The notes under the pieces: model-generated
What the model saw: the letters and a program-made list of their open reading frames with translations, nothing else
What the model was told of the DNA's origin: nothing
Database searches by the model: none
Assembly (NCBI GenBank): GCA_021731625.1
Contig: JAKFXC010000060.1
Location: 794-64,793 of the forward strand
DNA: 64,000 bases
From: Candidatus Omnitrophota bacterium
GTDB lineage: Bacteria; Omnitrophota; Gorgyraeia; Zapsychrales; Fredricksoniimonadaceae
Direction of reading: 5' to 3'
Position numbers and translations under genes: made by a program
Shown here: positions 1,845-48,854 of the stretch, in pieces
Position numbering within the stretch: position 1 is the first letter of the stretch
How the letters are laid out: the number at the start of each line of letters is the position of its first letter

Positions 1845-3797
1845 TTAATACGCGGTGACGACCGCCTGGGTCTTGGCTTTAGCGTCGGCCTTGCTGTAGA
1901 CAATAGGGATGGTGATGTTCAAATAATCCCCTTTCATGTCCTTAGGAAAGGCGGCATATGGAGCCACGATTTTAGCGGTGTTTAGAGCATCTTTGTCAAA
2001 AATATTGTGCCCTGAAGACTGCACCACTGCTGCTTCCGCCAAAGATCCATCTTTTAAAATGTGGAGCTTGAGCTTGACAGTGCCGTGCAAATTCTTTTTG
2101 AGGGCCTCATAGGGATAGGTGATGGCCTTGGAAATCTTCACCTGAATAGAGCGCACATACGGAGAGATCTTGCCCTCAACCATGGTCGCTTGCGTCGCTA
2201 TTTCCCGAGATGCCGCCTTGTTCCATTTCTCCGATTTTGACCCTCGGTCCTTGGAAGAGCCTTTAGCGTCATCCTTGGCATCTTTCTTAGCATCTTTCTT
2301 AGCATCTTTCCAAGAATCTTTGCCAGATGCTTTGCCGGACGATTTCTTCCCATTCTTGACGCCTTCCTTAGCGGCATCCTTGCCGCTCTTATCGCTCTTA
2401 TCCTTATCCTTAAGGGAAGACGTGTACTTCTTCTGCAGCGGCTTAGGTGGAGGAGGCGGAGGATTTTTGGGTCTGTCCGTCGGCAATGGCTCATATTCCA
2501 TGCCGTATTTGTCTTCCAATTCTCTCATGTTCCTAGTTAAATCGTCACCTGGCATCTTGGCCTGATCTCTGGCATATTGTTTGGTCCGAACGATGGTCGG
2601 GGTCATGCTAATGACCACTTCTTTGGCCTCATCCGGAACAATCTTGCTGGTGTTTCTAAAAAACATGCCCACAATCGGTATTTTTCCCAAGAACGGCACC
2701 CGACGGGTTTGCTCGGCCTCGGCATAGCGGATCAAGCCCGCCATGATGACCGTCTGCTGGTCTTCCATCACCAGTTCCGTTTGCGCCGTGCGGGTCTTAT
2801 ACGCAATGTCGCTGGTGCGGGCGGCGGTGACCGGAAAGGTGGTGTCCACGTCGCTAATCTGCACATTCATCAGCACATTGATCTTTTCATCTTTGATCGT
2901 CGGGGTTACCGTCAAGGTGACGCCGTATTGTTTAAATGTCACATTGGTCTGCGCCGTCAAGCTGCTGGCATTAAAAGTGGTGGATTCGACCGGCACCTCG
3001 CCGCCGACATTCACGGTCGCTTGCTTGCCGCAGGCAACCACCAACCGGGGACGTGACAACGTGCGGGCCTTGCCGTCTTTGATGAGCAAGTTGACCGCCG
3101 TAATAATGGCATTCCTGCGGTTAAATTGCCCCAACTTAAACCAATCTCTGGCCCCGTCTAAATTCGAAGTCAGCGATTCCGTATAGATGAGCTTTAAAGG
3201 AAGACTGTTTTCTCCGCCGTTCCATTCAATGCCTAAATTTTTGTCCAGGGTGGTGCCGAGTTCCGTCACCTGCATGTCGATCTGGATCATGTCTTCGCAA
3301 TCTTTTTCGCGGGTGACATTGACGATCTGCTCGGAAAAGGGGTCCAGCAGCCGTTCCAGCCGGGGTCTTTGCTCTTTGTACACTTCTCCGGAAACGATGA
3401 CTTTGCCTTCCGCCGGGCTGGCGTCCAAATTCAAACCGTTAAGGTCGGCCTCCTCCAATAAACGCTGCAGCCGTTTCTTTAAACCATTTAAATCAACGCT
3501 GGAAACATTCAATGCCACTGTGTGCTTACCTTCGGAATCCCAATAAAACAACACGGTTTGCCCGGCCCGTTTGGCGACCACTGTGACTTTGTCGGCCGTG
3601 GCATCGGAAATATCCGCGATATCAGGGTTGGTGACGGACACCCGCGAAAGGGTCTTGGCTGGAAACGTCTGCACGTCCCCTAAAATCATGTTGGCCTCAG
3701 AGGTCGAGGTCTTTACCTCCTGGGCAATGCCGATACCGACGGGATTGATCGATCCGGTCACAAATACCAGCGTTATTAGGATTCTGAATATATTCAT
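1845..3797 (-). CDS. cpaC: Tad/Flp pilus secretin (CpaC/RcpA family) with Pro/Lys-rich linker and C-terminal TonB_C-like domain
   Basis: Signal peptide MNIFRILITLVFVTGS. Secretin core (GGEVPV...VMEDQQTVIMAGLIRYAEAEQTRRVPFLGKIPIVGMFF...VISMTPTIV). Then PPPPPPKP plus a KDAKKDAKKDAKDD low-complexity linker and a C-terminal domain ITYPYEALKKNLHGTVKLKLHILKDGSLAEAAVVQSSGHNIFDKDALNTAKIVAPYAAFP typical of TonB C-terminal domains. Confidence 0.8.
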   Translation of the reverse strand: MNIFRILITLVFVTGSINPVGIGIAQEVKTSTSEANMILGDVQTFPAKTLSRVSVTNPDIADISDATADKVTVVAKRAGQTVLFYWDSEGKHTVALNVSSVDLNGLKKRLQRLLEEADLNGLNLDASPAEGKVIVSGEVYKEQRPRLERLLDPFSEQIVNVTREKDCEDMIQIDMQVTELGTTLDKNLGIEWNGGENSLPLKLIYTESLTSNLDGARDWFKLGQFNRRNAIITAVNLLIKDGKARTLSRPRLVVACGKQATVNVGGEVPVESTTFNASSLTAQTNVTFKQYGVTLTVTPTIKDEKINVLMNVQISDVDTTFPVTAARTSDIAYKTRTAQTELVMEDQQTVIMAGLIRYAEAEQTRRVPFLGKIPIVGMFFRNTSKIVPDEAKEVVISMTPTIVRTKQYARDQAKMPGDDLTRNMRELEDKYGMEYEPLPTDRPKNPPPPPPKPLQKKYTSSLKDKDKSDKSGKDAAKEGVKNGKKSSGKASGKDSWKDAKKDAKKDAKDDAKGSSKDRGSKSEKWNKAASREIATQATMVEGKISPYVRSIQVKISKAITYPYEALKKNLHGTVKLKLHILKDGSLAEAAVVQSSGHNIFDKDALNTAKIVAPYAAFPKDMKGDYLNITIPIVYSKADAKAKTQAVVTAY

Positions 3798-4653: not shown

Positions 4654-5607
4654 TTACTTGACGGCGCCGTCTCCCAGAAGGTTCTTGTTGATTTGCACTT
4701 TTGTTTTTGACGAAAGCTGCTCGATGTGGGCCAAAATGGCTTCCTGCTGTTTGCGTAAGGTCAGGCCCGCGATCAAATCGTCTTTGATGTCTTTGAATGC
4801 CTTGGCCGCGCCGCCTCTTTTGTCGTCGACGTGCACGATGTAATATCCTTGCGGGCCCTTAAACACCGGGCTGGTGCCTCCGGCGTCCAAAGAAGAGATA
4901 GCCGATTGCATGGCGGCGAAAGGGGCCTTGCCGTTATCGAAAGGTTTCAGGGCCCCGCCGGCTGCCGCGGATTTTCCCTTGGATTGGGCCTTGGCAATGT
5001 CGGCGAAACTCCCGCCCTGCAGGACCTGCACTAAAATGTTTTTGGCCGCAGTTTCGTCTTCCACCACAATTTCGCTGACTTTCCATTGAATGGGGTCAAC
5101 AAACATCTGTTTGTTTTTGTCAAAATAGACTTGGGCCTCTTTTTCCGTGGCCGCCACGTTTTTGGTCAAGCGGTTCGCCAATTCCTGCACCAAGAGGGTG
5201 CGGCGAAAATCCTCCACGGCCTCGGCGATTTCCTTTTGGGCGCCGATGCCTGCCTCTTCCGCATCCTTGACCAATAGCTGTTGGCGCACCAATTCATTTA
5301 AGACCGCTTCCTTGTTGCTGGCTTTGCTTTCGTCAAAATTGGGCAGGCCTTCTTTAAGCAGTTTCAGGCGTTGATTAAATTGGTCGGTGGTCAAGGTCCA
5401 ACTGCCTACCTGGGCCAAAACATCGCCGGCGGGAGCCGACGCCTTGGCAGAGGACGGCCGGGTCGCGGGCTCCGCGGTTCCTGTGGACGTCTTTTTGGAA
5501 TCTTTGTTTGAGTTTAGAAAAGAATTGATAAAATCGCAGCCGGAGATTGCTGAAACAACCATCACCACCGCCAATACAGCGACCCACTTTTTTTCAAAAT
5601 ATTGCAT
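4654..5607 (-). CDS. Parvulin/PpiC-type peptidyl-prolyl isomerase lipoprotein (SurA/PrsA-like)
   Basis: Lipobox AISGC. SurA-N-like helical region followed by a PPIase block (FADIAKAQSKG...GGALKPFDNGKAPFAAMQSAI...GYYIVHV). Confidence 0.65.
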   Translation of the reverse strand: MQYFEKKWVAVLAVVMVVSAISGCDFINSFLNSNKDSKKTSTGTAEPATRPSSAKASAPAGDVLAQVGSWTLTTDQFNQRLKLLKEGLPNFDESKASNKEAVLNELVRQQLLVKDAEEAGIGAQKEIAEAVEDFRRTLLVQELANRLTKNVAATEKEAQVYFDKNKQMFVDPIQWKVSEIVVEDETAAKNILVQVLQGGSFADIAKAQSKGKSAAAGGALKPFDNGKAPFAAMQSAISSLDAGGTSPVFKGPQGYYIVHVDDKRGGAAKAFKDIKDDLIAGLTLRKQQEAILAHIEQLSSKTKVQINKNLLGDGAVK

Positions 5608-13830: not shown

Positions 13831-14918
13831 CACAGCCTCATCGGCAACGCCAAATACAAATATTCCCGCAAACGCAGCACGCAAGGCTTGTCCGGGCCCA
13901 GAAATTCCAGCTCCAGGCGCTCGTCAGAAATGTTCTTGAGCACGTCGATAAAAAACTGCGGGTTAAACCCCACCATCATTTCCTGCTGGCCGTACTCAAT
14001 GTCAATTTCTTCCCTGGACTCCCCCACGTCCGGCGTAGTCTTGGAAATCACCAGCTTGTCCTTAAACACCTCGAATTTGATAGCCTGGAAATCGGGGGTG
14101 GACAACAAATTTGCCCGGCGGATGGCAGCCAGCAAATCCGCCGTCTTCACTTTGACTTTATGTGGAATCTCTTTGGGAATGACCTGTTTGTAATTAGGAA
14201 ACTCCCCTTCAATGATGCGGGTGGCAATCAAAATCCCGTCGATGTTAAATAAGACCTGGTTGGGCCCCCCGATGATCACGCAATCTCCCGACTCTTTTAA
14301 ATTGCGGCTTATTTCCGCCACCGCCTTAATGGGAATAATAATAGAAAAATCTTTAGCGCTGGCTTGCAATAATTTTTTCTCAATCTTAGCCAATCGCCGG
14401 CCGTCGGTCGCCACCATCCGCGCCGTGTCTCCGGAAATTTCCAATAACAACCCGTTTAACACATACCGTGATTCCTCATACGAAACCGCGAAAGACGTTA
14501 ACCGGAGCATTTCTTTTAAATCGGTTTGTTTAATCAACACCGCGTCTTTGTCTTTAAATTCTGGAAACTTAGGAAATTCCTCTTTTGGAAGGCCGTTAAG
14601 CTTAAACCGGCAGTTGGTGCCCTCTATTTCAATTTGATTGTTCTTGCGGGCGTAGATGATCACTTCCCCGGCTGGAAGCTCTCTAATAATATCGCTAAAC
14701 TTCTTAGCTGGAATAGTTATCGCCCCTTGTTCAAAAGTATGCACAGGCAATTCACAGGATATACCAATGTCTAAATCCGTTGTGTTCATTTTCAAACCAT
14801 CGCTTTTGGCCTCCACTAACATGTTTGACAGTATAGGAAGTGTGGCCCTGGAAGAGACAATATTACCTACGACCTGGATCCCGCTTAAAAGTTCTTCTTT
14901 CCCAATTTTGATTTTCAT
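13830..14918 (-). CDS. dnaN: DNA polymerase III beta sliding clamp
   Basis: Three-domain beta-clamp pattern starting MMKIKIGKEELLSGIQVV. ATG at 14918 with an AGAAGGA RBS. The ORF-track start at 14921 is an upstream TTG. Confidence 0.9.
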   Translation of the reverse strand: MKIKIGKEELLSGIQVVGNIVSSRATLPILSNMLVEAKSDGLKMNTTDLDIGISCELPVHTFEQGAITIPAKKFSDIIRELPAGEVIIYARKNNQIEIEGTNCRFKLNGLPKEEFPKFPEFKDKDAVLIKQTDLKEMLRLTSFAVSYEESRYVLNGLLLEISGDTARMVATDGRRLAKIEKKLLQASAKDFSIIIPIKAVAEISRNLKESGDCVIIGGPNQVLFNIDGILIATRIIEGEFPNYKQVIPKEIPHKVKVKTADLLAAIRRANLLSTPDFQAIKFEVFKDKLVISKTTPDVGESREEIDIEYGQQEMMVGFNPQFFIDVLKNISDERLELEFLGPDKPCVLRLREYLYLALPMRL

Positions 14919-39307: not shown

Positions 39308-39680
39308 CCCTGCCCTGATTTTTCTAGAATTGACAATAAGGTAGTCAGGACTGGGCAATATTTTTCTAGATGTTGTTCTTTTAGAATTGTGGAAATATTT
39401 GCCCTGCCCTGATTTTTCTAGAATTGACACTAAGGTAGTCAGGACTGGGCAATATTTTTCTAGATGTTGTTCTTTTAGAATTGTGGAAATATTTGCCCTG
39501 CCCTGATTTCTCTAGAATTGACACTAAGGTAGTCAGGACTGGGCAATATTTTTCTAGATGTTGTTCTTTTAGAATTGTGGGAATATTTGCCCTGCCCTTG
39601 CTTTTTAGAAGAAAAGCATAAGGAAGCAGGGACTAGGGCAAATTTTTCTTAAAGTAGTTCTTATAATTTTTTGGAAATTT
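39308..39680. repeat. Tandem repeat, 93-94-bp unit x about 3 plus a diverged proximal unit, directly upstream of tRNA-Gln
   Basis: Units start at 39308, 39401, 39495 and 39589 (GCCCTGCCCTGATTTTTCTAGAATTGACA...TCAGGACTGGGCAATATTTTTCTAGATG...). Each begins with a copy of the tRNA-Gln 5' acceptor sequence TGCCCTG. Shares the ATAAGGAAGCA and CCCTGATTTTTCTAGAA motifs with the tRNA-Cys and tRNA-Leu leaders. Confidence 0.85.
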
Positions 39681-39751
39681 GCCCTGTCGTCTAACGGTAG
39701 GACCCAAGATTCTGGATCTTGTTGTCTAGGTTCGAATCCTAGCGGGGCAAT
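39681..39751 (+). tRNA. tRNA-Gln (anticodon CUG), no encoded CCA
   Basis: U1-A72 acceptor TGCCCTG/CGGGGCA, anticodon stem CAAGA/TCTTG with loop TTCTGGA, T-arm CTAGGTTCGAATCCTAG. Confidence 0.8.
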
Positions 39752-39832
39752 TTTTAAACACAACCTCCTGTGATTAGATAAATTGCAGGAGCTTTTTTTT
39801 GACTTGACAGCCACAAGAGGCGTGTATACAAT

Positions 39833-45047: not shown

Positions 45048-45142
45048 TATTCTGTCATTATTTTTAGAGAAATCTTAAGTAGGAAGGGGAGCCTGGGTTC
45101 CCCTGATGGGGAGCGAGACCGAACGCAGTGAGGCGAGCGACA

Positions 45143-45166
45143 GGTTCGAATCCTAGCGGGGCAATT
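45143..45166 (+). repeat. 24-bp direct repeat of the tRNA-Gln 3' end (GGTTCGAATCCTAGCGGGGCAATT), putative attR of an integrated island
   Basis: Identical to 39730-39753 (T-arm through acceptor end of tRNA-Gln plus 2 nt). Confidence 0.7.
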
Positions 45167-45242
45167 CTGTTCAAATCGAACATAATGGACGTATTGACTA
45201 TTATGTCTAAATAGGGTATACTTGCGTAAGGAGGTGAGACGA

Positions 45243-45482
45243 ATGACAAAGACAACAGCTACAGAAATGAAAAATCATTTTGGCCAATATCTGGAAGGGG
45301 CTATCTCCGAACCGGTGATCATTGAAAAGTCAGGCCGTTCGGTTGTGGTCATGCTTTCCATTAAGGAGTATGAACGGCTTGTAGCCTTAGACGATGCTCA
45401 TTGGGCTCAGAAGGCTCTTAAGGCAGAGAAAGCGGGGTATATTGGACAGAAAGAATCCTCTAAATTTTTAAGGTCTAAATAG
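45243..45482 (+). CDS. Phd/YefM-family antitoxin
   Basis: MTKTTATEMKNHFGQYLEGAISEPVIIEKSGRSVVVMLSIKEYERL matches the YefM pattern. AGGAGGTGA RBS. Confidence 0.75.
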   Translation: MTKTTATEMKNHFGQYLEGAISEPVIIEKSGRSVVVMLSIKEYERLVALDDAHWAQKALKAEKAGYIGQKESSKFLRSK

Positions 45483-45485
45483 CGC

Positions 45486-45752
45486 ATGCTTTCCCTTGAT
45501 CTTACTCATCAGGCCAAGGATTTCTTAGATCAACTAGATTCCAAGCGATTTCGTCAGGTTGTTAAAAAGATTTTCACTTTAATGGAAAATTCTCGGCCCC
45601 TGGATTCAAAGGCCCTGCAAGGACATCTATTCTGGCGTGCCGATATTGGAGAATATCGGATTATTTACCGTGTTGAAGAGAATTGTTTGAAAGTGGCGCT
45701 GGTAGACAAGCGCAATGACGACGAAGTTTATAAAAAATTAAGACGCATGTAA
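45486..45752 (+). CDS. RelE/ParE-family type II toxin
   Basis: LQGHLFWRADIGEYRIIYRVEENCLKVALVDKRNDDEVYKK matches the RelE/ParE C-terminal pattern. Immediately follows the antitoxin. Confidence 0.75.
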   Translation: MLSLDLTHQAKDFLDQLDSKRFRQVVKKIFTLMENSRPLDSKALQGHLFWRADIGEYRIIYRVEENCLKVALVDKRNDDEVYKKLRRM

Positions 45753-45771: not shown

Positions 45772-46014
45772 ATGGTTTTTGAAATCCGCAGGGCTAAAAA
45801 TGGCTATATTCTAAAAGTCGTTAACACAGAAAATGTTGCGACTGAAGCAGAAGAAATTGTTTATCAGGAGAAATACGATGATGAGGTCGAATGTTTCGCT
45901 GAGTTTCTGAGATATTTGAACGATGAATACGGGCCATCCACTAGCCGTTATTCTGAAAAACGGATTCATATAAGCGTGTGCCCGGGGGATAAGTTTAATG
46001 AACCGGCTTCATAG
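45772..46014 (+). CDS. Hypothetical protein (80 aa)
   Basis: ORF only, no recognisable motif. The recurring 3' motif lies 70 nt downstream. Confidence 0.35.
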   Translation: MVFEIRRAKNGYILKVVNTENVATEAEEIVYQEKYDDEVECFAEFLRYLNDEYGPSTSRYSEKRIHISVCPGDKFNEPAS

Positions 46015-46510: not shown

Positions 46511-46576
46511 TTTACCTTAGGTGTAAAAACTCGCAACTGCTTATCAATATTATAGTTGTGTATTTTTTATGTCAAT

Positions 46577-46639
46577 TTGATATTTTACCGGGAATCCCGG
46601 TAAAATTAGCTTGATTTTTACCGGGATTCCCGGTAGAAT
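46577..46639 (+). promoter_or_regulatory. Tandem promoters, each with a 17-bp palindromic operator in the spacer, immediately upstream of the GHKL-ATPase gene
   Basis: P1: TTGATA (46577-82), 18-bp spacer holding TACCGGGAATCCCGGTA (46586-46602), TAAAAT (46601-06). P2: TTGATT (46611-16), 17-bp spacer holding TACCGGGATTCCCGGTA (46619-46635), TAGAAT (46634-39). The ATG at 46646 lies about 7 nt after the P2 -10 element (a possibly leaderless transcript). Confidence 0.6.
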
Positions 46640-46645
46640 TTAACT

Positions 46646-47599
46646 ATGAAAATACACGTACCAAATAGCGCATTTCTTGGCAATTTAGATCCTTTTTTGA
46701 AAGGGTTTGATCCTACGGATCCCCATTCGCTGCATGTAACCTTAAATCCCAAGTGGACGTCAGTGCACCCCCTTGTGCTATCTATGATCGGTTCCCTTGG
46801 GTTAACTATTAAACCTGAAAATATCCATATTGATAAATTAGTGGCAAGATCAAGCCACTACTTGGTTAGAATGGGACTATATAAATTACTTAATATTTCT
46901 TGCGGTACAGTTATACAGGAGCATGCCCCTGAAGGAAGATTTATTCCACTTAAACAGGTTCGCACATCAGATGAGTTGGCCGAGTTCATTACTGAAATGA
47001 TACCGCTTCTTCATTCAGATCCTGAACAATCTAAAACAATTGGATACATAATTAGTGAACTTGGGAGAAATGTTCTTGAACATTCTGTATCAGAAAATGG
47101 GGCTATCCTGTGCGCCCAATTCTATGCCAAAAGCAATACCATTCGTATAGGAATAGCCGACACGGGCGTAGGCATAAAAAAAACCATTAACCGGTCTCAC
47201 AACGCCATAACGGATTTGGAGGCCATTCAACTGGCATTATGGCCGGGGATTACTGGTACAACCAGCGCTCCTGGAGGGACTGCACAAAATGCCGGCGCTG
47301 GTTTATTTTTTATTAAGTCCATAGCAAATTTAAATAAAGATTTTTTTGTTATATATAGCGGGAAGGGTTTTTATAAACTGTTAGCTAAAAAGAGTAAGAA
47401 AGTACGGCTTAATGCGGATCCTTTTGAAGATCAACATAGCAAATCGGATCAATTGCCATATTGGCAAGGAACGTTAGTCGGAATAGACATAAGCCTTGAT
47501 CAGACGACGGAATATTCCAAACTGTTGGATGCCATTAGAGACATTTACTATGCATTAAGAAAAACTAAGAAATCACATAAGAGAGCAAAATTCATATGA
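46646..47599 (+). CDS. GHKL/HATPase_c-domain protein (RsbW-like serine-kinase fold) with an uncharacterised 110-aa N-terminal domain
   Basis: N box ELGRNVLEHS, G1 box IADTGVGI, G2 box GAGLFFIK. 317 aa. No sensor-kinase dimerisation/H-box domain. Confidence 0.7.
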   Translation: MKIHVPNSAFLGNLDPFLKGFDPTDPHSLHVTLNPKWTSVHPLVLSMIGSLGLTIKPENIHIDKLVARSSHYLVRMGLYKLLNISCGTVIQEHAPEGRFIPLKQVRTSDELAEFITEMIPLLHSDPEQSKTIGYIISELGRNVLEHSVSENGAILCAQFYAKSNTIRIGIADTGVGIKKTINRSHNAITDLEAIQLALWPGITGTTSAPGGTAQNAGAGLFFIKSIANLNKDFFVIYSGKGFYKLLAKKSKKVRLNADPFEDQHSKSDQLPYWQGTLVGIDISLDQTTEYSKLLDAIRDIYYALRKTKKSHKRAKFI

Positions 47600-47913
47600 G
47601 AGAGATCAACATTTACGAAAAGATCGGCAATAAGGATTTCGCCGAGAATAAAGATATTGGCAAAGACATTCGCCTAGAAGAGATCATGCCCGAATTAGAG
47701 AAAAACAATGTGGTTATCTTAAATTTCGATAAAATAGACCGGGCATCACAATCTTTTATTCATTCGCTCATCAGCGATCCAATCCGACAATACGGGGACA
47801 ATGTTTTAGACATAATGTTATTCAAAAACTGTAATGATAGAGTTAAGGAAATGATTAAGATCGTTTTAGGTTATTTGCAGGATGCCATTGACAATAAGGA
47901 TGGCTTGTCGTAG
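47596..47913 (+). CDS. DUF4325-like (STAS-fold, anti-sigma-antagonist-like) small protein
   Basis: 105 aa, IYEKIGNKDFAENKDIGKDIRLEEIMPELEKNNVVILNFDKIDRASQSFIHSLISDPIRQYGDNVLDIMLFKNCNDRVKEMIKIVL. ATGA overlap with the upstream GHKL gene. Confidence 0.6.
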   Translation: MREINIYEKIGNKDFAENKDIGKDIRLEEIMPELEKNNVVILNFDKIDRASQSFIHSLISDPIRQYGDNVLDIMLFKNCNDRVKEMIKIVLGYLQDAIDNKDGLS

Positions 47914-48001
47914 TTCATAAGATGCCTATAAGAGGTTCAGTCTTTAGCCAGCTGTGAAACTCGTCCCAGACGGGACATCCAAAATAAGGTGCGAATTGCG
48001 C

Positions 48002-48547: not shown

Positions 48548-48674
48548 TCAAAGAGCGCCGCAGGCATTTTCCGGAATACAACTAAATAGGATATAAGCAG
48601 TTACAGAATGATATAAAAAGAAACAAAAATCACTACTCAGTCTAGTACATTATGATATATAATGATACATAGTT

Positions 48675-48854
48675 ATGAGTAAGTTATTGCGCAAATTAGA
48701 GGACTATAGATTGGAAAATAAGATATCTCAGAGTAAACTTGCTGAGATGCTTGGGGTTACGTTTGTCACCGTCAACCGCTGGTTTAATAAAAAATTTGAG
48801 CCCAACCAGATCCAACGCCACCACATCAAGAAGCTGATCAAAAGCGAATCCTAG
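48675..48854 (+). CDS. Small XRE-family HTH transcriptional regulator (59 aa)
   Basis: MSKLLRKLEDYRLENKISQSKLAEMLGVTFVTVNRWFNKKFEPNQIQRHHIKKLIKSES with the canonical HTH_XRE core SQSKLAEMLGVTFVTVNRW. Below the ORF-track cutoff. Confidence 0.5.
   Translation: MSKLLRKLEDYRLENKISQSKLAEMLGVTFVTVNRWFNKKFEPNQIQRHHIKKLIKSES

Follow-up and report, generated by a model that had tools for sequence, protein, structure and literature searches.

A two-gene GHKL kinase/STAS cassette with its own tandem operator in Candidatus Omnitrophota, related to CapK–CapS and VapK–VapS–VapC

We examined two adjacent genes, A ('K') and B ('S'), in a 64,000-nucleotide (nt) stretch of a Candidatus Omnitrophota genome (GenBank assembly GCA_021731625.1, contig JAKFXC010000060.1, positions 794 to 64,793 of the forward strand), which is referred to here as the window. 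The genes encode a GHKL protein and a small STAS-like protein, and together with two operators around their own promoter they form a cassette of about 1.33 kb, the K-S cassette (Table 1). The positions and sizes of both open reading frames (ORFs) proposed in a first-pass annotation, which had been made from the letters of the window, proved exact, as did the overlap between them: in the ATGA at 47596-47599, the TGA stop codon of A and the ATG of B share bases. The coupling holds for the relatives of the pair as well. A homologue of B lies directly downstream of A, on the same strand, in 84 of 84 loci, and among 112 distinct full-length A genes (metagenome loci included) 96 overlap B by 4 nt and 6 are separated from it by a gap of 2-13 nt; for the other 10, B could not be called, in some cases because the contig ends first. 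When the window was compared with its closest loci (81%, 80.5%, and 74% DNA identity), the similarity started at 46556-46585 and stopped at 47903-47918; the span shared at the DNA level is exactly the operator–promoter region plus A and B.

Table 1. Coordinates of the K-S cassette in the window and of orphan tandem operators in viral contigs
Feature	Position	Strand	Description
Gene A ('K')	46646..47599	+	317-aa Ser-kinase-type GHKL protein, basic, pI 9.3
Gene B ('S')	47596..47913	+	105-aa single-domain STAS-like protein (DUF4325), acidic, pI 4.8
Upstream promoter-like site, TTGATA-18-TAAAAT	46577..46606	+	Promoter scan, 10/12 matches; palindrome 1 within spacer
Operator palindrome 1	46583..46607	.	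TTTTACCGGGAATCCCGGTAAAATT, core TACCGGGAATCCCGGTA at 46586-46602; direct/inverted repeat family D2
Main sigma-70-type promoter, TTGATT-17-TAGAAT	46611..46639	+	Promoter scan; -10 box ends 6 nt before ATG
Operator palindrome 2	46616..46640	.	TTTTACCGGGATTCCCGGTAGAATT, core at 46619-46635; fills promoter spacer and abuts -10 box
A residues 1-105, STAS-like sensor domain	46646..46960	+	beta-alpha-beta-alpha-beta-alpha order (structure model); invariant W37 and H41-P42 (KWxSVHP)
A residues 106-285, GHKL (Bergerat) kinase domain	46961..47500	+	N box, G1 and G2 motifs; homology to VapK
A residues 286-317, C-terminal helix and basic tail	47501..47596	+	Ends in conserved (K/R)xxxF-x
B codons S51-Q52-S53, candidate phospho-acceptor	47746..47754	+	N-terminus of helix alpha-2
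Orphan viral tandem operators (phage intergenic)	L093 1989/2017; L107 9290/9318; L109 1735/1763; L116 10954/10982		Four viral contigs

Protein A (net charge +8.5) has 2904 homologous clusters, with E values down to 1e-188. Its kinase domain carries the GHKL motifs reported in the first-pass annotation, namely the N box ELGRNVLEHS (E138/N142/H146), G1 IADTGVGI (D172, G174, G176), and G2 GAGLFFIK (G217, G219). Little or no variation was seen at these motifs when 26 close and 40 distant homologues (down to 27% identity) were aligned. The same domain includes a K161-K162 hairpin (consensus YYKKSN; A reads YAK162SN), the lid WPGITGTT, and G3 (G275-T276), and in the C-terminal tail F316 is almost invariant, even among homologues at 27-48% identity. 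Pfam returned only a sub-threshold match to HATPase_c_2 (E 7e-4), NCBIfam gave nothing useful (TIGR01925, spIIAB, 12.9 bits against a cut-off of 135), and a sequence search of the PDB with A gave no match. The structures nearest to its AlphaFold2 model (predicted template modelling score 0.79) were anti-sigma Ser kinases. A reads as a SpoIIAB/RsbW-type GHKL kinase behind a probably STAS-like N-terminal domain.

This architecture has close parallels among immune regulators. In CapK–CapS and VapK–VapS–VapC, described recently (Chambers et al., EMBO J 2026; PMC13373217), a kinase activated by single-stranded DNA (ssDNA) phosphorylates its STAS partner. CapK has a helix-turn-helix (HTH)–STAS–GHKL arrangement, is activated by ssDNA through W68, K237, and K239, and phosphorylates Ser54 of CapS (PMC13373217; PDB 9Z71-9Z73); VapK is a STAS–GHKL protein of 302 aa with F54 in the STAS domain, VapS consists of a STAS domain with S48 and a C-terminal helix, and the two control the PIN toxin VapC (PMC13373217). 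Using the VapK sequence from the AlphaFold 3 file of that paper, we found 26% identity with A over 166 residues (52.8 bits; 40 bits with the A profile). The loop that follows strand 2 of the N-terminal domain could be aligned by eye (KW37xSVHP in A, RF54LRPN in VapK, AW68IDEN in CapK), and the family hairpin YYKKSN matches YK237GK239 of CapK and IKKN of VapK. The 110-aa N-terminal region of A, previously left unassigned, would correspond to the STAS-like sensor domain of VapK and CapK by topology and motif alignment, with no significant sequence score.

Protein B (net charge −5.4) matched DUF4325 in Pfam above threshold (E 3.6e-9), in agreement with the initial DUF4325/STAS assignment. Its structure model (predicted local distance difference test, 94) was nearest to STAS domains (RsbR 6.8, RsbV 6.6, RsbS 6.6, SpoIIAA 6.3), and Foldseek agreed weakly with STAS domains. 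Since the model of A is nearest to anti-sigma Ser kinases and that of B to STAS domains, the likeness of the pair to RsbW/RsbV, noted from the outset, holds for both proteins at the fold level. The helices of B fill its 105 residues, and because the protein ends with the last STAS helix (residues 81-101), no separate C-terminal region is evident. The best PDB match of the B-family profile was VapS (9z7o_A, E 0.0026, 75 aligned positions). In the profile alignment, the S51-S53 site falls within one residue of VapS S48, and it occupies the position of CapS S54 and SpoIIAA S58 as described in PMC13373217. S53 is invariant in 102 of 102 B proteins, and residue 51 is Ser or Thr in 101 of them.

These features bear on a different view of A, as a DNA-acting GHKL ATPase in the style of MORC, MutL, or Topo VI-B that would load at palindromes or foreign DNA, with B as a regulatory lid. 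The best structural matches of A are all anti-sigma Ser kinases, its N box follows the SpoIIAB pattern E-x3-N-x3-H, it has no transducer domain, and the Ser at the STAS phospho-site of B is invariant; we consider this view quite improbable.

The palindrome TACCGGGAWTCCCGGTA occurs twice around the promoter of A, and the operator can be written as a perfect 17-bp palindrome, TACCGGGA(A/T)TCCCGGTA. The position of the −10 box relative to the ATG of A implies a leaderless mRNA, and no Shine-Dalgarno-like sequence was observed in any locus, that of the window included. Such a leaderless transcript would be translatable in bacteria as well as archaea, with B probably made through translational coupling. 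At least one operator copy (with no more than 2 mismatches) was present within 200 nt upstream of A in all 84 loci, and 54 loci have two copies. The bacterial layout consists of palindrome 1, then TTGACA, and then palindrome 2 fused to TATAAT, with palindrome 1 located just 5' of the −35 box in most bacterial relatives; −35 and −10 boxes were identified in 52 of 66 bacterial loci, with the −10 box ending 4-11 nt (mode 6) from the ATG. The archaeal layout, found in 14 of 15 loci, consists of palindrome 1 and then TTTATAWA (−29 to −32), with a half-site immediately preceding the ATG. The same operator is kept while the promoter switches from −35/−10 boxes in bacteria to a TATA box in archaea.

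We scanned one genome per species (185,579 species genomes) and found relatives in 279 stretches; the identities and lineages given here cover the best 80 of them, in which A is 61-91% identical to that of the window. The bacterial carriers are Elusimicrobiota, Omnitrophota, metagenome-assembled genomes labelled Planctomycetes, Saganbacteria, Chlamydiae, Deltaproteobacteria, and several Patescibacteria of the Candidate Phyla Radiation (CPR), and the archaeal carriers (15 loci, five phyla) are Nano-, Woese-, and Micrarchaeota, Thermoplasmatota, and Methanosarcinales. Synonymous sites in A and B are saturated, with a normalised codon entropy of about 0.92 that is flat along the genes, a profile that gave no indication of an embedded DNA or RNA element in either of them. 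Given this saturation, the level of protein identity (61-68%) at which bacterial and archaeal copies have remained is due to strong purifying selection and not to recent transfer, and the invariance of the operator must itself be selected.

The cassette is accessory DNA. Distant two-gene relatives (20-30% identity) were found at the cargo end of Streptococcus prophages, beside paratox, and on an Alicyclobacillus plasmid, where the partner is annotated as 'STAS-like'; a similarly distant K-like protein of 343 aa encoded by a single ORF (L086, 3605-4636) adjoins a BrnT/BrnA pair on the 6.8 kb A. baumannii plasmid p2OC074, and a BrnTA-like pair is found in the island of the window as well. In a Francisella prophage, a 293-aa ORF followed by a 112-aa DUF4325 ORF lies between the cI repressor and the integrase, and a PIN/VapC subgroup has been described as 'transcriptionally coupled to DUF4325 genes'. 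Genuine single-chain K-S fusions occur among distant relatives (P0310, P0338, P0341, P0349), and one PHROG profile (phrog_5816, 441 positions) spans both proteins. A further candidate fusion, P0215 (451 aa), was rejected as a frameshift or assembly artefact, as it goes out of frame after 'LPYW' and re-enters the B frame. Separately, a marine-sediment contig (L142) carries two complete operator–A–B cassettes in tandem (2997-3039 and 5416-5458), both about 52% identical to A.

The operator is essentially private to the K-S cassette. In the 64 kb of the window, it occurs only as the two copies upstream of A, even when 3 mismatches are allowed, and only one further copy was detected in 1.03 Mb of flanking DNA from related loci; this copy, on a Methanosarcinales contig (L070, 6946-6965), is single, perfect, and intergenic, 1.4 kb downstream of the cassette. 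A specificity scan of 241 million metagenome records, in which two exact palindromes had to be spaced 10-20 nt apart, yielded 51 tandem sites in 50 loci, and downstream of 49 of the 51, at a distance of no more than 60 nt, an A homologue (45-91% identity) begins, matching from residue 1. Since the tandem operator is private to the cassette, the simplest inference is that its binder is A, B, or their complex.

The same data weigh on the possibility that the pair is a pure signalling partner-switch with its target in trans, in which B or A would bind an unlinked protein or promoter set, as SiaC/RsbV do, and would tune a DNA-damage stress response without being toxic. Against it, the operator is found nowhere else in the window and at one further site in the flanking DNA of related loci. 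The patchy spread of the cassette, its variable insertion sites, and its presence in both domains fit accessory mobile DNA, and a trans target would need to be shared by bacteria and archaea. We regard this alternative as rather unlikely.

The genes next to the cassette were surveyed in 80 loci (147 nearest genes, of which the 25 commonest families were listed). Most have unrelated housekeeping roles (ABC transporters, HisRS, GyrB, sugar epimerases), and few of them are toxin–antitoxin (TA) or defence candidates (AAA_14/DUF4143, AbiEii, nucleotidyltransferase). Apparent neighbour matches to mad3, mad8, and AriA had five members each, which equals the count of ABC-transporter ATPases, and were read as generic ATPase cross-matches. 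No conserved neighbour or third gene emerged from all-against-all clustering of 648 flanking ORFs, in which the largest cluster covered 7 loci. Neither sigma factors nor PP2C/SpoIIE phosphatases nor PIN domains were among the 25 commonest families, and the ORFs read at 39.8-50.4 kb of the window, ten of which were scanned against Pfam, showed neither a sigma factor nor a PP2C; a phosphatase gene could still lie elsewhere in the genome. These results agree with the initial statement that no sigma factor, PP2C phosphatase, or output domain is nearby; the arrangement that would have marked an ordinary housekeeping module, homologues beside a sigma factor and a PP2C phosphatase, was not seen in the commonest neighbour families of the 80 loci. 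By contrast, the argument that the pair lies where defence genes accumulate is weak for the family, given its mostly housekeeping neighbours.

Two other explanations can be weighed against this neighbourhood. In the first, the pair would serve a housekeeping function by controlling a sigma factor, like ordinary RsbW/RsbV or SpoIIAB/SpoIIAA modules, as its fold similarity and the name 'anti-sigma regulatory factor' given to JGI homologues might suggest. The similarity stops at the fold, the TIGR01925 score is low, and the 15 archaeal loci have archaeal promoters and belong to organisms without sigma factors. The archaeal copies, together with the lack of a sigma factor or PP2C among the genes surveyed, exclude a housekeeping anti-sigma module, which we consider to have a negligible chance of being correct. 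In the second, the pair would be a controller of an adjacent pathway, of the CapK–CapS type, in which B (or A) represses a downstream cargo operon that DNA damage de-represses. The homology to CapK/CapS and the palindromic operators speak in favour of this possibility, as does the lack of a terminator-like site after B on the + strand of the window. However, B has no winged HTH (wHTH) and A no HTH, what follows B is a different gene at almost every locus, encoded on the opposite strand in about half of the loci, no second operator is found downstream of B, and the DNA homology ends at the B stop codon. This makes the adjacent-pathway explanation improbable.

From these results, we favour, at about even odds, the idea that the locus is an autonomous, autoregulated kinase–substrate switch of the CapK–CapS/VapK–VapS type, cut down to its two core proteins and working in a TA-like or abortive-infection-like manner. 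By homology, A would be switched on by a nucleic-acid cue, most likely ssDNA arising from DNA damage or phage infection, whose binding site would lie between the STAS-like domain (W37) and the kinase domain (K161/K162), and active A would phosphorylate B on Ser53 (or Ser/Thr51). The anatomy of the promoter suggests that the cassette represses itself through the two palindromes, with A, B, or an A–B complex as the repressor. Because the basic tail of A is family-specific, like the operator, A or the A–B complex is favoured as the binder; the preferred repressor would be basic A, with its basic C-terminal tail, held by unphosphorylated acidic B. Phosphorylation of B would then break the complex, de-repress the operon, and free A. 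In the most speculative step, free or over-produced A, or phosphorylated B, may hit a target common to bacteria and archaea and arrest growth, so that the kinase would be both sensor and effector, and B its antidote. The basic and acidic character of A and B, the K-S fusions, the relatives on plasmids, in prophage cargo, and between cI and the integrase of the Francisella prophage, and the match of A to a DrmA (DISARM) model hint indirectly at this TA-like behaviour, and the cassette has generic type II TA traits in being a small coupled bicistron with palindromic operators in its promoter that is scattered by horizontal transfer.

Several observations weigh against this proposal. Defence genes were not enriched beside the cassette among the 147 nearest genes in the 80 loci, and the very strong purifying selection over all of both proteins is unusual for defence or TA genes. 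No linked effector is visible, and the toxicity of A is a guess. Pfam and NCBIfam scans revealed no recognisable DNA-binding domain in A or B. The proposed kinase activity, phospho-site, and ssDNA cue derive from the 26% identity to VapK and from motif alignment. Likewise, the predicted STAS nature of the A N-terminal domain is based on secondary-structure order and motif position, without sequence statistics: hhalign found no similarity between this domain and the B family, and a Pfam scan of 40 diverse relatives gave 1 weak STAS_2 match (E 0.16). Other observations concern the operator. The two exact tandem sites that lack a full A gene include a deletion remnant (L138, 2106-2200; Ga0247727_10000509), which retains intact operators and −35/−10 boxes and the reading frame of A up to its ninth codon (VKIHLPNSA), after which unrelated sequence follows. 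This scar indicates that cassettes are lost by deletion of both genes; it shows that the cassette can be lost, and the joint loss of both genes is compatible with a TA system. The other site (L146, ~520-592; Ga0207150_1426) has three palindromes and no K or S, and is the sole true orphan of the 51; its palindromes precede a gene whose N-terminus reads, by eye, like dihydropteroate synthase. In addition, four IMG/VR viral contigs contain two operator-like palindromes exactly 28 nt apart and no A or B homologue (Table 1). This distance is the usual operator spacing of the cassette, and a second viral site at a fixed offset has a chance probability of about 2e-6. IMG/VR contains no member of this A/B subfamily. 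Viral contigs also have single operator matches, most of which resemble ordinary terminator hairpins and were set aside. The orphan viral sites may act as decoy operators, may connect phage genes to the host switch, or may be bound by a different protein, and together with L146 they imply that the site may serve something besides autoregulation.

A stronger version of the proposal would be a minimal kinase-toxin/STAS-antitoxin (or abortive infection) system working in both domains, with A acting as sensor, operator-binding autorepressor, and effector at once, and with some phages carrying the tandem operator to titrate or exploit the cassette. In such a system, operator binding by A would involve either the family-specific basic tail at its C-terminus or the groove for ssDNA; a leaderless mRNA and the exchange of nothing but the core promoter would allow expression of the cassette in both domains. 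This version seems to us unlikely, albeit worth stating.

The cassette of the window lies in a region of low G+C (0.39-0.45 over 39-49 kb against ~0.52 elsewhere in the window) downstream of a tRNA-Gln gene (39679-39751). Pfam identified Phd/YefM and ParE, CopG-type BrnA-like, YHS copper-type, and HTH_3/XRE genes around the pair, and a CopA-type P-type ATPase was recognised by inspection of its ORF; a putative BrnT ORF had no Pfam match. The surroundings reported at first, that is, tRNA-Gln, low G+C, a Phd/RelE-type pair, BrnA, an XRE regulator, and copper genes, were recovered with the exception of BrnT. An exact 25-nt direct repeat of the tRNA-Gln 3' end (39728-39752 and 45142-45166) brackets a 5.4 kb low-G+C segment that contains the BrnT/BrnA-like genes, the YHS and CopA-type copper genes, and a truncated major facilitator superfamily gene. 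With its att-like ends, this segment resembles an integrated element; the ORFs listed for it, part of which were searched, revealed no integrase. The K-S cassette is located 1.4 kb past the second repeat, within a further low-G+C stretch. Positions 45222-45752, just beyond the second repeat, encode a further type II TA pair, composed of a Phd/YefM antitoxin (E 1e-12) and a toxin of the ParE/RelE type (E 8e-6), and between it and the cassette there is an 80-aa ORF (45772-46014) and then ~560 nt without a recognisable gene. The HTH_3/XRE gene (48653-48842), 0.76 kb downstream of B, has 73% DNA identity to positions 14072-14262 of the closest related contig (L005), where the match lies 4.8 kb downstream of the cassette; it is the sole flanking similarity between the two loci and could represent residual synteny or a loose association.

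The 2026 work on CapK/CapS and VapKSC showed that anti-sigma-type kinase/STAS pairs have been recruited as DNA-damage sensors for immunity (PMC13373217). The K-S cassette would be the barest form of that switch, with no attached effector and no DNA-binding domain, yet strong selection acts on it in phyla that range from Elusimicrobiota and CPR bacteria to DPANN and methanogenic archaea. Should the output be the kinase itself or the phosphorylated STAS protein, this would represent a new effector logic for the kinase/STAS family, and the cassette would be one of the rare defence or TA-type modules that function in unaltered form in both prokaryotic domains. The retention of the operator across the swap from sigma-70 promoters to TATA boxes offers a testable transcription-factor/operator pair that is independent of the host transcription machinery, and the cassette could serve as a portable damage-responsive switch. 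The combination of cross-domain spread, very strong constraint, and a promoter-independent operator is unusual and experimentally tractable.

Among known two-gene modules, HipBA consists of a protein kinase and a small partner, and is autoregulated through palindromic operators that overlap its promoter. The parallel with the K-S cassette is a functional analogy only, since HipA belongs to another kinase fold, the HTH protein HipB is the product of the first gene, and there is no homology. In a search against PADLOC-DB 2.0, no full-length component matched A, and B had no match; A aligned with positions 62-251 of the 1750 positions of one DrmA (DISARM) model (E 1e-12) and weakly with PDC-M65A. 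The DrmA match covers A residues 56-249 (46811-47392 in the window), which suggests, on the basis of this alignment, that some DrmA variants may have an N-terminal K-like sensor-kinase domain, that is, that the domain is also fused to a defence helicase.

SpoIIAB–SpoIIAA and RsbW–RsbV provide the best structural matches, share the N, G1, and G2 motifs, and have the STAS phospho-Ser at the matching position. Unlike these modules, the K-S cassette has no sigma target or PP2C in sight, its kinase has a STAS-like N-terminal domain, and it is mobile, occurs in archaea, and has its own operator. In the CapK–CapS system, CapS is a STAS–wHTH protein that acts as a dimeric repressor of its own promoter and of the downstream immune operon (PMC13373217). 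The K-S cassette resembles it in that the palindromic operators of CapKS give autoregulation and A has counterparts of the lysines that line the ssDNA groove of CapK. It differs in that both the N-terminal HTH of CapK and the C-terminal wHTH of CapS are absent, and whereas CapKS lies upstream of a co-oriented immune operon, the K-S cassette has no constant downstream partner and its operators are only 5' of A.

The closest relative is VapKSC, which protects E. coli about 100-fold against phage Bas42 (PMC13373217; PDB 9Z7O). In both systems, the gene for the kinase precedes that for the STAS protein; the kinase is a GHKL protein of about 300 aa with an N-terminal domain that is STAS-like in VapK and probably so in A, where W37 in the beta2-alpha2 loop aligns by eye with the aromatic F54 of VapK, and the small STAS partner has a conserved Ser/Thr that opens helix alpha-2. 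In contrast to VapKSC, no VapC/PIN gene or recurrent third gene was seen in the ~80 cassette loci, where PIN is not among the 25 commonest neighbour families, B looks like a bare STAS domain in which no counterpart of the C-terminal inhibitory region of VapS is evident, A has an extra C-terminal helix and basic tail that are absent from VapK, and the K-S family has a conserved tandem operator and occurs in archaea and bacteria. The first-pass annotation could place the pair in no named system and considered it undescribed. The VapS match and the 52.8-bit alignment with VapK do not support the first of these statements, since CapK–CapS and VapK–VapS–VapC are its relatives; as for the second, the effector-less two-gene form has no description in the literature searched. 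The K-S cassette, which lacks the HTH, the wHTH, the PIN toxin, and a conserved neighbour, is a distinct two-gene branch of the kinase/STAS sensors described in 2026.

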